Shown: positions 9,197-28,405 of the stretch, in pieces
How positions within the stretch are numbered: the first letter of the stretch is position 1
How the letters are laid out: each line of letters opens with the position of its first letter
From: a phage
Sequence record: PX104378.1
Strand: one strand, 5' to 3'
DNA length: 64,000 bases
Notes under the pieces: model-generated
Told to the model about the DNA's origin: nothing
The model's input: the letters and a program-made list of their open reading frames with translations, nothing else
Databases searched by the model: none
Position numbers and translations under genes: made by a program

Positions 9197-9504
9197 TCTG
9201 GAAACTTCCCGTAAATGTTCTCTGCCAACATACGCGCATCGCTAATGATATCTTTCATGCTATGACCGTAGTGTTCAGCCATTGAGTTGACACAATCAAC
9301 AAAGAAATTATAACGGCGACGGTTTAAGATTTCTTCTCTGCTATAGTTTTCATATTTGACGGTCGAGTGTGCTTTCTCGATTGCCTTTATCGCTATATTG
9401 ACTTCATTGATAATGGTTTTAGCATTGTATGCACCACGACGGATCAGGATATTTGTCAATTCTCTTGCAATATCTTGCAATTCTTCATATTCATGTTCAA
9501 ACAT
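9193..9504 (-). CDS. Hypothetical protein
   Basis: ORF-track 9193..9525 trimmed to the ATG preceded by GAGAGG RBS (MFEHEYEEL...). Confidence 0.45.
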   Translation of the reverse strand: MFEHEYEELQDIARELTNILIRRGAYNAKTIINEVNIAIKAIEKAHSTVKYENYSREEILNRRRYNFFVDCVNSMAEHYGHSMKDIISDARMLAENIYGKFPE

Positions 9505-25455: not shown

Positions 25456-26210
25456 TATAAACCTACCTTCGCTTTCATCAATTCAATCCACGACGCATCA
25501 ATCGGAAGCCCGTATTTCACGCGTTCTTTTTGTGCTGGCGTTAAGTTCTCATACTTAGAAAGAGATTCAATCAAAACGCTGGTATATTTTAGCACGATTT
25601 CGGTATTGTTTGCAATAGCCTTGAGTTTTTCCTCTTTCTTGTTGATTTCGCTAAGGGCTTGCTTGAGATCTGCAATTTTCTGATAACGTTCTTCCATACG
25701 GAAGAGAGTATTTTTAATCGCTCGCTCGGCTGCCTCTGCTTTCTCCGGTTCGTTGTGCTTTTTGTGGCGCTCGATTGCTAATTTCTTTTCTTCGATTGCC
25801 ATTTCCTGATTTTTGATGCGATTCTCGTTAAGTTCGATCCACTCGATGTACTTTGCACGTAGGGCGATCTCATCATCAGAAAGTTTACCGTTAGTTCCTA
25901 GTTCCTGGATCTCTTTAAGAGATTCGATAGTGTGATTGCCACGGAAAGAATTGTATTTCAGTTTAACCGGAATTACATTGCCATCAACATATCCCAGATT
26001 GCAATCAATGCGCTCTAAGGAGAGTCCGTCATCACCTTCACCGAAAGCCTCACCTGAATATGCGCAATGAGTCTGACGGTAAATGTTACGCACAGTGACT
26101 AAGCTCATAGAGAAGTCTTTGTTGCGACGTGAAGCGCCAGCCATGATAGAGTTCAGACGGAAAACAACCAGCGCCAATTCTTCGTTAGATTTAAAAGCAA
26201 ACAGTTTCAT
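25455..26210 (-). CDS. Hypothetical protein with C-terminal coiled coil (position of T4 srd)
   Basis: 251 aa; AGGAGAATCAATT-ATG with conserved 5'UTR cassette and promoter upstream. Assignment by position only. Confidence 0.5.
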   Translation of the reverse strand: MKLFAFKSNEELALVVFRLNSIMAGASRRNKDFSMSLVTVRNIYRQTHCAYSGEAFGEGDDGLSLERIDCNLGYVDGNVIPVKLKYNSFRGNHTIESLKEIQELGTNGKLSDDEIALRAKYIEWIELNENRIKNQEMAIEEKKLAIERHKKHNEPEKAEAAERAIKNTLFRMEERYQKIADLKQALSEINKKEEKLKAIANNTEIVLKYTSVLIESLSKYENLTPAQKERVKYGLPIDASWIELMKAKVGL

Positions 26211-26237
26211 AATTGATTCTCCTTAGTTGGTATGTGT

Positions 26238-26269
26238 GTATTATTGTCTATCTGGTTTGTGCTGTCAAC
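26238..26269 (-). promoter_or_regulatory. Early promoter with conserved 5'UTR cassette
   Basis: TTGACA-~20nt-TAATAC ACACATACCAACTAAGGAGAATCAATT-ATG. Confidence 0.4.
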
Positions 26270-26271
26270 AC

Positions 26272-26775
26272 TTAAATTAAAGAAAATTTGTAAATCTCTA
26301 TCAGGTCGCCGTTACATGCGTAAACTTCCTCGATCTCATCAAGGATCATGGTCGTCCCTGTCTTGTATATGCACTCGCGCTCATCCGCCAACATAGCATA
26401 CAAAGACAGTCGAGTAGTCGGATTGTCATACTCTTTAGACACCACTCGATCAATAGCATGTTCGTAATAATTCATGCAAGGCTTGGTAGGTTTTATTGCA
26501 ATAATCTTTCCTGTTGCATAAACATCGGTTGCAAAGTCCTCTGCTGTTGATTGCAGTGGCGTAAAGCTCATAGGACGCTCTACAACGAAAGAATCGCCTA
26601 CAATTAAGGTATCCAGCTTACGGCCTTCTCTTTTGCTCACACCGCGATACAAGGCTTCATGATGCACTAACCGTTCAGTCTTTTCAATCAATCCATTAAG
26701 GATCGACATATCGATATTTTCTTTAGAGTTCATCACTTCATCAATGATGTTAAGTTCTTCTGGTGTAAATTGCAT
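26272..26775 (-). CDS. Putative mono-ADP-ribosyltransferase (ModA/ModB-like)
   Basis: Candidate R-S-ExE triad (LYRGV ... SFTP ... ADERE); position matches T4 modA/modB; start at ATG (MQFTPEEL) after GGAGG. Confidence 0.5.
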   Translation of the reverse strand: MQFTPEELNIIDEVMNSKENIDMSILNGLIEKTERLVHHEALYRGVSKREGRKLDTLIVGDSFVVERPMSFTPLQSTAEDFATDVYATGKIIAIKPTKPCMNYYEHAIDRVVSKEYDNPTTRLSLYAMLADERECIYKTGTTMILDEIEEVYACNGDLIEIYKFSLI

Positions 26776-26807
26776 AATAAAAAGCCTCCAATCTTTCGAC
26801 GGGAGGC
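26776..26807 (-). terminator. Hairpin after gene 56 whose 3' arm contains the SD of the ART-like gene
   Basis: Minus-strand GCCTCC-cgtcgaaagatt-GGAGGC then TTTTTATT-ATG. Confidence 0.45.
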
Positions 26808-26843
26808 ATAATAAAACCATTATAGAGTAGTGTCAACTAATTT

Positions 26844-27368
26844 TTAGTAGCCGCGTTCTTGACGGGCGAAGTTTTCAGCATTTTTCAGATAGTACAGCTT
26901 GAAGATATCCTTAGCGGTTAAACCTAAGCCCAGCATTTTAATCAGCACAAAATGCCAGATATCGATCAATTCCATCGCAATTTCGGTTTTATCGTCATCT
27001 GACAGATCAGCAAATTTACGCGCTCGTGCTTCGCCGTGGTTCTTCTTCCACACTTTAGTAATTGCGCTTGCATCTTTGCCATTTGACATGCCACCCAGGG
27101 CAACATAAAGTTCTCGTGTCTCGTCGTCGATTGCGTCATCCCATAGCTTCATCCAATCAAGGATCTCCCCGCAAGTTTCCAGCTTATCAGGATGCGGCAC
27201 CCACTCAAATTTATCAGCTAGTGCGACCTGTAAGCCTTTTTGCATATCTAACATTACTTGCAGCGGATCTTTGCCGCTAGTGATTGCCTCGGAATACGCA
27301 ATACCAGCTTTAGACATAGTTTCGTCGCTAACCAGACCAGCACAAGAATTAAATTCTGACATATTCAC
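26844..27368 (-). CDS. 56: dCTP pyrophosphatase gp56 (MazG-like)
   Basis: 174 aa; KDPLQVMLDMQ, HPDKLET, ELIDIWHFVL, IFKLYYLKNAENFARQERGY closely match T4 gp56. Confidence 0.9.
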   Translation of the reverse strand: MNMSEFNSCAGLVSDETMSKAGIAYSEAITSGKDPLQVMLDMQKGLQVALADKFEWVPHPDKLETCGEILDWMKLWDDAIDDETRELYVALGGMSNGKDASAITKVWKKNHGEARARKFADLSDDDKTEIAMELIDIWHFVLIKMLGLGLTAKDIFKLYYLKNAENFARQERGY

Positions 27369-27376
27369 CTCATTAA

Positions 27377-28405
27377 TTAAAATTTACAATATTTCATAAA
27401 CCGCATTTTAGCCATCAGACCTTGTACGGTGTTCTCTTTGATATATTCCATGATCTGGTCGCGTGTAGCGCCCTCGTCCTGAATCATGGCGTTAACGTCT
27501 TTAGAATGCCACGGACAACGATCCCACAAAACAATCTTTTCCCCTGCATTGATAAACTTTTCCAGTCGGTGCATTGTATCGGCTGACCGTGGTTCCGCAT
27601 CAAGTACAAACACTCGCTGGTCTGGGAAAGGGATTTCATCTAATCCCAAAGTACCGCCAGTAATTGCACACCCGTTATCAATAAACAATGAATCGATCGG
27701 ACCTTCTAAGAAATACACTGGCTTGCTCGGATCGGCGCGTTCAAGACCATAGACCTTACTCGCTAACTCGTGAGTTTTAATCGTCATATATTTGGTCTTT
27801 CCGTAATCCTTTCTCAATGCTCGCCCCTGAATGGATTCTATCTTGTTCTCACGGTTAAAGATAGGAATCACTAAACGCGGTTCAGGTTGCGGATTCTTAA
27901 AAGTATCAGCCTTAATGTGATTTGCTACCTTTTGCCATTCTCTCGTGAAATACAGAAGATCCCATTTATCGTGGGGAATGCAACGATCACTGACATACTT
28001 TATTATAGGATGATTAGCCGGAAGAGTATCTAATCTCTCGCAGAAAGGCAATGTTTGCACTTTCTTAATCTCCGGCTTTTCTACCTTTTTCAGTGGCTTG
28101 ACCGTGGTGTTCTTGTGGTCGCCTTGTTCCTTCCGTCTCTCCATAAGCCATTCCCTGAATAGGTCCGGCTTATACTGTTTGAGAAATTCACCTAACGGCT
28201 GATTGTAGTTACAGTTGAAACATCCGGCTCGCAAACTATCTTTATAGGTATAGATACGGAATCGCGCTTGAGTATGATTTTTCTTTGAGTCACCGCAGAT
28301 CGGACAACTACAGACCAGCGTAAATGAGCTAGTATGCAACCGTTTAAAATTTCGTTCGCCGTATATGGCTTTTTCCGCTATTTCATAATCTGCGTAGTAA
28401 ATCAT
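27377..28405 (-). CDS. 61: DNA primase gp61
   Basis: 342 aa (same as T4 gp61); zinc motif CPICGDSKKN...CFNCNY; TOPRIM block EGPIDSLF; C-terminal QGLMAKMRFMKY. Confidence 0.9.
   Translation of the reverse strand: MIYYADYEIAEKAIYGERNFKRLHTSSFTLVCSCPICGDSKKNHTQARFRIYTYKDSLRAGCFNCNYNQPLGEFLKQYKPDLFREWLMERRKEQGDHKNTTVKPLKKVEKPEIKKVQTLPFCERLDTLPANHPIIKYVSDRCIPHDKWDLLYFTREWQKVANHIKADTFKNPQPEPRLVIPIFNRENKIESIQGRALRKDYGKTKYMTIKTHELASKVYGLERADPSKPVYFLEGPIDSLFIDNGCAITGGTLGLDEIPFPDQRVFVLDAEPRSADTMHRLEKFINAGEKIVLWDRCPWHSKDVNAMIQDEGATRDQIMEYIKENTVQGLMAKMRFMKYCKF

Follow-up and report, generated by a model that had tools for sequence, protein, structure and literature searches.

Arbiol et al. (2010; PMC2839356) described promoter-early stem-loop (PeSL) cassettes, about 50 in number, in phages RB49 and phi1. 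In these cassettes a stop codon is followed by an A/T-rich stretch, a consensus sigma-70 promoter, a transcription-terminating stem-loop, a Shine-Dalgarno (SD) sequence and an ATG. RB49 has 51 PeSLs. Five PeSL subclasses are distinguished, one of them with the stem-loop immediately after the -10 box, and the stem-loops are experimentally effective terminators (PMC2839356). Here we describe the leader of modB, a gene for an ADP-ribosyltransferase (ART) of the Mod family, on the minus strand of a 64,000-nucleotide (nt) stretch of phage DNA (record PX104378.1). This whole stretch is referred to below as the window, and coordinates are positions within it. Judged by its anatomy in the sequence, the spacer between gene 56 and modB is a PeSL-type cassette of the post -10 stem-loop subclass; promoter and terminator activity have been shown for other PeSLs. 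The phage group and the order of parts are shared with the PeSLs of RB49 and phi1. The modB leader differs from them in that the 3' arm of its stem is the SD itself, whereas the SD lies beyond the stem in the other post -10 stem-loops noted in the window. Its stem has the form CCUCC...GGAGG, whereas a typical PeSL stem consists of a G-tract followed by a C-tract, and the gene behind it is conserved and belongs to a known family instead of being an ORFan.

A second described system is found in phage T4, in which the SD or AUG of e, soc, 49 and I-TevI is hidden by a hairpin in long transcripts initiated upstream, and a promoter inside or beside the 5' arm gives shorter RNAs that lack the helix and are translated (PMC3014915). 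The unmasking promoter of these T4 genes is late (gp55) and translation is late-only, whereas the promoter that would unmask modB is an early sigma-70 promoter and translation would be early-only. By analogy, such a translational gate would mirror those of T4 e and soc, opening early only where they open late only. The Krischvirus modB leader additionally bears a terminator tail, unlike the masks of the four T4 genes.

The sequence indicates that the window derives from an RB49-like Krischvirus (over the 2-kb region around modB, identity with Krischvirus RB49 is 98.7%) and that modB is its single Mod-family arginine-type ADP-ribosyltransferase gene. The gene is known and correctly annotated, and both the promoter and the hairpin/terminator were predicted before. 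For RB49, Nolan et al. (2006; PMC1524935) predicted an early promoter, Pe:9496 (9446-9496), and a TransTerm terminator, 'modB<--56' (9430-9453, confidence 100, 10 base pairs (bp)). With an offset of 17355 between RB49 and the window (17354 upstream of an indel in the U-tract), these features map to 26800-26850 and 26784-26807. GenBank record MN882349.1 has an annotated terminator here, with the modB ribosome-binding site inside it. What is new here is the reading of the hairpin as a translational insulator and its conservation across genera, both within a known class of phage regulatory devices. We consider it probable, while allowing real room for error, that the hairpin insulates modB from upstream read-through and that the gene's own early promoter starts past the 5' arm, giving an open mRNA.

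The modB leader in the window and in Krischvirus relatives

Past the stop codon of gene 56 (26846-26844), the minus strand reads AAATTAG-TTGACA-(17 nt)-TATTAT-GCCTCC-C-GTC-GAAA-GAT-T-GGAGGC-TTTTTATT-ATG. The spacer between gene 56 and modB is 68 nt long, with 36 nt between the end of gene 56 and the stem, and transcription from gene 56 heads into the hairpin. The -35 hexamer TTGACA (26831-26836) follows an A-rich stretch, AAAAATTAG, lies inside the region corresponding to RB49 Pe:9496 and is invariant in eight relatives. After a 17-nt spacer comes the -10 hexamer TATTAT (26808-26813; TATTAT or TATGAT in relatives), which abuts the 5' arm of the hairpin. A promoter scan scored this modB promoter (26836-26808) as an 11/12 match to the sigma-70 consensus.

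The stem-loop itself, GCCUCC-C-GUC-GAAA-GAU-U-GGAGGC, occupies 26784-26807, with its outer 5' arm at 26807-26802 and its outer 3' arm at 26789-26784. The SD, GGAGG (26785-26789), lies within the 3' arm, and the U-tract UUUUUAUU (26776-26783) serves both as the terminator tail and as the sole spacer between SD and AUG. The hairpin is predicted to fold at -15.0 kcal/mol (z = -4.5), and none of 200 shuffled sequences folded equally well; all statements on RNA folding given here are thermodynamic predictions. The leader has the features of an intrinsic terminator, namely a GC-rich stem of 6+3 bp followed by U5AUU, although the internal mismatch caused a simple terminator scan to overlook it. A preliminary description of this DNA, made from its sequence, had placed a terminator-like hairpin after gene 56, with GGAGG in its 3' arm, and on these points the fold, the U-tract and the earlier RB49 and MN882349.1 annotations agree with it. 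An Rfam search over 26000-27600 gave no family match.

From sigma-70 spacing, transcription from the modB promoter is predicted to start at 26800-26801, 7-8 nt past the -10 box and at the first bases beyond the six-base 5' arm. The 3' end of the 51-nt promoter model of Nolan et al. also maps to 26800. The gene's own transcript is thus predicted to be unable to form the hairpin, because the -10 box touches the 5' arm and the start lies at or just past the end of that arm. In RNA of the window that contains the 5' arm, the predicted probability that the SD is unpaired is 0.00, and in RNA begun 6-8 nt past the -10 box it is 0.34-0.44 (0.33-0.58 in three diverged relatives). In these models, therefore, masking depends on the promoter used, with the SD paired in the long RNA and freed in the short one.

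Among the 25 promoter-SD-ATG cassettes on the minus strand of the window, that of modB is the only one with a strong stem burying the SD. The alternative that a C-rich discriminator is generally complementary to the SD in RB49 early promoters was considered and rejected, as several weak CUCC/GGAG pairings occur but the strong mask is confined to modB. Other near-consensus early promoters on the minus strand are directly followed by PeSL-type GC-rich stem-loops of -13 to -21.5 kcal/mol (for example at 33143-33116, 37898-37870, 31832-31803, 22473-22446 and 47528-47501); the SD lies downstream of the stem in those inspected.

The leader was compared with those of five Krischvirus genomes and with those of three metagenomic relatives that have ModB proteins 75%, 74% and 63% identical to that of the window. 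The -35 and -10 boxes, stem, U-tract and spacing are kept in all eight, and the -10 box abuts the 5' arm in every one. In the relative L005, a U-A pair has been replaced by C-G in a compensatory change and the SD becomes GGGGG; in both L005 and L006 the C.U mismatch is replaced by an A-U pair. All leader variants fold with z-scores of -3.7 to -6.1. Among near-identical Krischvirus genomes the U-tract (26776-26783) has 5-7 leading U residues, with length differences of 1-2 U, and this variation alters the terminator tail and the SD-to-AUG spacing alike.

Predicted SD pairing in mod leaders of Tevenvirinae

Pairing of the same kind was predicted in Tevenvirinae, in which the srd-adjacent mod gene (modB where there are two) has an early promoter of the GTTTAC...TATGAT type. 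In nine genera, the -10/discriminator region of this promoter is predicted to pair with the SD and, in most cases, the AUG as well. The phages concerned are T4, RB69 and mar005P1 (Mosigvirus), a VR5-like contig, Merlin (Moonvirus), CHI14 (Winklervirus), Entb_45 (Kanagawavirus), Klebsiella phage kv_tblp2 (genus not in the record), UFV01 (Karamvirus), JD18 (Jiaodavirus) and fHe-Yen9-01 (Tegunavirus). Pairing of SD/AUG with the gene's own promoter was located in the leaders of T4 (L007:4632-4672, minus strand), RB69 (L022:1895-1935, minus strand) and the VR5-like contig (L012:50-89), and in records L023-L030 at some 45 nt before the start of mod. The local stems have predicted energies of -5.5 to -19.3 kcal/mol, with z-scores down to -8.3.

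Stem sequences differ between genera. The 5' and 3' arms are AUGAUAGCUUCUG and CGGAGGCUAUCAU in T4, GUUAGUAUCUCU and GGAGAUACUAAC in kv_tblp2, AUGACCUC and GAGGUCAU in the VR5-like contig, and AUGAUGGCCUUC and GGAGGUCAUCAU in Entb_45. The -10 box of kv_tblp2 is TAGTAT rather than TATGAT and its SD-to-AUG spacer is AUACUA rather than AUCAU; both have changed, so that the pairing is retained. The Tevenvirinae stems cannot be terminators because they have no U-tract.

For the mod genes (n = 8), positions -13 to +3 have a mean predicted accessibility of 0.12, compared to 0.405 for neighbouring genes of the same loci (n = 16). The SD-masking stem is absent from the modA-position paralogues that we examined (RB69 modA and the 204-amino-acid (aa) gene of the VR5-like contig), and the accessibility of mar005P1 modA, 0.45, is at the level of the neighbours. 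When the Tevenvirinae leaders were aligned with MAFFT and passed to RNAalifold, the stems did not line up and the consensus fold was poor (-2.2 kcal/mol). The case for Tevenvirinae is made instead by folding each sequence separately against shuffles, and by the neighbour-gene control.

In Entb_45 (L025:344-358), and in L017-L019 about 12 nt before the T4-type modB start, the start given by annotation or by the longest open reading frame (ORF) is an ATG in the hairpin loop. Translation in these phages probably begins at the SD-spaced ATG, 12 nt further downstream. In T4, the early promoters Pe11.5, Pe12.8 and Pe15.0 are reported to precede the region of modA, modB, srh and mrh and to be expressed more strongly without DksA (PMC6024815). 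Pe12.8 is probably the T4 modB promoter, although the coordinate systems differ. The literature searched gave no description of the SD-masking pairing of modB or of a hairpin in the T4 modB leader, although key older papers were outside the search and may contain an earlier mention.

Possible roles of the hairpin

From the promoter match, the stability of the hairpin and its conservation, we infer a start site, an efficiency of termination and a translational effect that would combine as follows. Polymerase arriving from the upstream 61/56 unit would transcribe the full stem-loop and U-tract and would mostly terminate there. RNA that is nevertheless produced by read-through would retain the stem-loop, with GGAGG wholly paired, and would be poorly translated. 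Initiation at the gene's own promoter, 7-8 nt past the -10 box and at the end of the 5' arm, would make the stem impossible and leave the ribosome-binding site open. The outcome would be that ModB is made solely from its own early promoter. Insulation of this kind is the best-supported model; the stem would terminate upstream transcription, in Krischvirus only, and would silence whatever RNA reads through. The preliminary description had proposed that the hairpin gates translation of the gene. This stands for read-through RNA, in which the SD is predicted to be fully paired, but not for RNA from the 11/12 early promoter, which that description overlooked and whose transcript is predicted to lack the hairpin. 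With such a transcript, the hairpin would be no general gate on the translation of modB mRNA.

The structure could also be simply the intrinsic terminator of the 61/56 unit, with GGAGG in its 3' arm as incidental space-saving and almost no read-through left to silence. We think this unlikely, though it has enough in its favour to be taken seriously: the GC-rich stem with its U-tract, the TransTerm confidence, the terminator annotated in GenBank and the demonstrated effectiveness of PeSL stems would all be as expected. It is harder to reconcile with ten Tevenvirinae lineages in which the equivalent stem hides the SD and AUG yet has no U-tract, as stems that are not terminators point to masking as the conserved function. 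The change of the L005 SD together with its pairing partner argues in the same direction, as do the other post -10 terminator stems noted in the window, which leave the SD outside. Much less probable, in our view, is that every modB mRNA carries the hairpin and that expression is gated by its opening, through a factor, temperature or coupling to translation of gene 56. Complete pairing of the SD whenever the 5' arm is present, and the end of gene 56 just 36 nt before the stem, are in keeping with such a gate. However, the stem is separated from gene 56 by a conserved 11/12 promoter, which others predicted independently and whose -10 box adjoins the arm in all relatives. Most RNA from upstream would be lost at the terminator tail, and coupling is implausible across the 68-nt spacer.

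We give equally little credence to the idea that the cassette is mainly a recombination module, with flanks conserved as exchange points for modB alleles rather than for expression. It derives from the PeSL shuffling model of Arbiol et al. (PMC2839356) and draws on a mosaic pattern in two relatives. The modB coding sequence (CDS) of L004 (801-1304) and of L006 (695-1198) has 73-74% nucleotide identity to that of the window, whereas the flanking intergenic regions are 91-100% identical (97-100% on the srd side) and srd is 91-95% identical. This pattern is expected if modB alleles are exchanged between conserved promoter cassettes, as in the PeSL model, or if modB evolves unusually fast. Such a module is compatible with a regulatory role rather than an alternative to it, and it leaves unexplained why SD pairing is kept in genera with unrelated stem sequences.

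Insulation of modB by the hairpin thus remains our preferred reading, and a number of observations weigh against it. The usual base at position 7 after the -10 box is A, as in L005, L006 and most other early leaders of the window, but the window has C at position 7 (26801) and G at position 8 (26800). The start is placed solely by spacing, and one 2-3 nt further upstream would retain part of the 5' arm. Even the gene's own transcript keeps a weak alternative pairing, so that the probability of an unpaired SD is about 0.4 and not 1. Covariation within Krischvirus is weak, with one compensatory pair and an equal score in 72 of 500 shuffles. In Tevenvirinae, JD18 and fHe-Yen9-01 have weak stems in the local window, and the difference in accessibility between mod genes and their neighbours (one-sided Mann-Whitney p 2.7e-6) comes from lineages that are not independent. 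The placement of the SD in the stem could be a mere economical overlap of a terminator and a GC-rich ribosome-binding site. Lastly, the predicted activity of the enzyme is based on homology and a model, for a protein that falls in a clade of its own. We looked in the literature for transcriptome or 5'-end data on RB49-type phages and found none.

More tentatively, and with slightly less than even confidence, we suggest that the pairing of the -10/discriminator with the SD/AUG is a conserved device of Straboviridae (Krischvirus and the nine Tevenvirinae genera) that confines the synthesis of toxic ModB to one early promoter. Synthesis of ModA is toxic to E. coli, and over-expressed ModB is lethal (PMC3014915; PMC2988021); early-only dosing fits an enzyme family with such reported effects. 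More speculative is a feedback in which ModB modifies S1, a factor needed for initiation on structured or U-rich leaders like that of modB. ModB attaches NAD-capped RNAs to ribosomal proteins and has received renewed attention (PMC10468400). If the leader does confine ModB to one early promoter, it would explain how the phage doses the enzyme, and it would add an early-gene case to the masking paradigm established for late genes of T4. For the cloning or engineering of mod genes, it is of practical relevance that the native upstream sequence holds a terminator and a masked ribosome-binding site.

The ModB protein and its locus

The modB CDS extends over 26272-26775 on the minus strand (ATG 26775-26773, stop 26274-26272) and encodes 167 aa plus stop, according to the ORF and its translation. 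The protein shares 100% identity with RB49 NP_891585.1, which bears the annotation 'modB, RNA polymerase ADP-ribosylase', and PHROG 832 ('RNA polymerase ADP-ribosylase') matches it at 1e-20. Pfam PF26816 (Mod_ADP_RT) is precomputed on a 99%-identical representative and on all homologues in a large protein database. A scan against Pfam and NCBIfam libraries gave no match for the window protein and equally none for T4 ModA and ModB, the library being without PF26816. Searching the PDB by sequence with the window protein returned nothing, including no Mod or Alt structure.

The candidate catalytic residues are R44 (LYRG), S70 (SFT) and E132-R-E134. R44, G45 and S70 are invariant across an alignment of 12 family members that includes T4 ModA and ModB, and E132/E134 are present in each full-length member. 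In this alignment R44 corresponds to R73 of T4 ModB and R72 of ModA, and E132/E134 to E171/E173 of ModB and E163/E165 of ModA. The R73A mutant of T4 ModB is inactive (PMC10468400). An AlphaFold2 model built from the 12-sequence alignment reached a predicted local distance difference test score (pLDDT) of 87.9 and a predicted template modelling score (pTM) of 0.81. When this model was compared by Foldseek to solved structures, the best matches were all R-S-E ADP-ribosylating toxins (Certhrax, C3, Vip2, CDTa and iota Ia; probability 1.00, template modelling (TM) score 0.53-0.64). Among predicted viral structures (BFVD), the best matches were Mod proteins of T4-like phages (TM score 0.85-0.93). 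The toxins are thus the closest solved-structure folds to the model, yet they share just 9-17% sequence identity with the window protein, which lacks their delivery/binding domains. Sequence and model together indicate that the protein is a Mod-family ART of the R-S-ExE type, a sound reading already in public annotation. The preliminary description had proposed a 167-aa ModA/ModB-like ART with an R/S/ExE arrangement and had named fold prediction as a check; both the motif and the predicted fold bear it out.

The window protein shares with T4 ModA and ModB the family, the R-S-ExE residues, the predicted fold and the position upstream of srd. It is shorter (167 aa versus 200-207 aa), being without the N-terminal extension of about 30 residues and having a shorter insert before the ExE motif, and it is just 23-33% identical to the T4 proteins. 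There is one gene in the window versus a tandem pair in T4. With its reduced size, the Krischvirus enzyme could serve as a minimal Mod scaffold for comparing target specificity with T4 ModA and ModB. The RNA polymerase alpha subunit is the target of ModA, and those of ModB are S1, L2, EF-Tu or trigger factor; the Krischvirus enzyme may act on either set or in RNAylation. BLASTP places the protein somewhat closer to modB-position proteins (VR5-like, 189 aa: 29% over 155 aa, 5e-16; T4 ModB: 33% over 113 aa, 8e-11) than to T4 ModA (23% over 159 aa, 2e-6), and the leader architecture resembles that of modB-position and not modA-position genes. In a neighbour-joining distance tree, however, the Krischvirus proteins form their own clade, apart from those of ModA, ModB and the VR5-type proteins and about equally distant from them (0.75-0.89). 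With the Krischvirus clade separate, a ModA- or ModB-like target specificity is not assignable from sequence.

Gene order in the RB49 annotation is 61, 56, modB, srd, dda.1, dda, with modB directly upstream of srd. T4 has a modB-modA-srd block, and the window gene occupies the end of the equivalent block, adjoining srd; the assignment to the T4 modA/modB position, also made in the preliminary description, is thus correct. Of eight further Tevenvirinae records, seven have one mod match, with the mod gene upstream of srd, and mar005P1 has a pair. In kv_tblp2, a small dmd gene lies between mod and srd. The tandem mod pair of T4, RB69 and VR5-like phages looks like a derived state. Downstream of modB, a promoter scan identified the srd early promoter (TTGACA-17-AATAAT, 26240-26268, minus strand; RB49 Pe:8927), so that modB is bracketed on both sides, by this promoter and by its upstream cassette.

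The longest ORF at the locus begins at ATG 26820 and would encode 182 aa. We rejected it as the gene because close relatives differ by 1-2 T in the length of the stretch between the two ATGs, so that the frame is not kept. The upstream gene 56 homologue (NTP pyrophosphohydrolase; 26844-27368, minus strand) is supported by PHROG 173 at 1.7e-32 and by the RB49 annotation. It is MazG/dUTPase-like and is listed among the ORFs with a GTG start and 174 aa, whereas the RB49 annotation gives 172 aa. The phage that carries this homologue is not known to use hydroxymethylcytosine. In some Krischviruses, an HNH homing-endonuclease gene about 0.58 kb long is inserted between the primase gene 61 and gene 56 (e.g., TB34, L031:2075-2638). 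No such gene is present in the window, and the insertion site in the other Krischviruses is the 61/56 junction, outside the modB leader.

Across the window, 60 of the 69 promoter-like sites are on the minus strand. A near-identical leader, consisting of a TATAAT-type -10 box followed by (A/G)CACACATACCAA(C)(T/A)AA(A)GGAGAATCAA(A/T)(G/T)ATG, recurs on this strand before unrelated genes (62722-62665, 26268-26210, 13112-13052 and others). Recurrent promoter-leader modules of this type could act as recombination sites.

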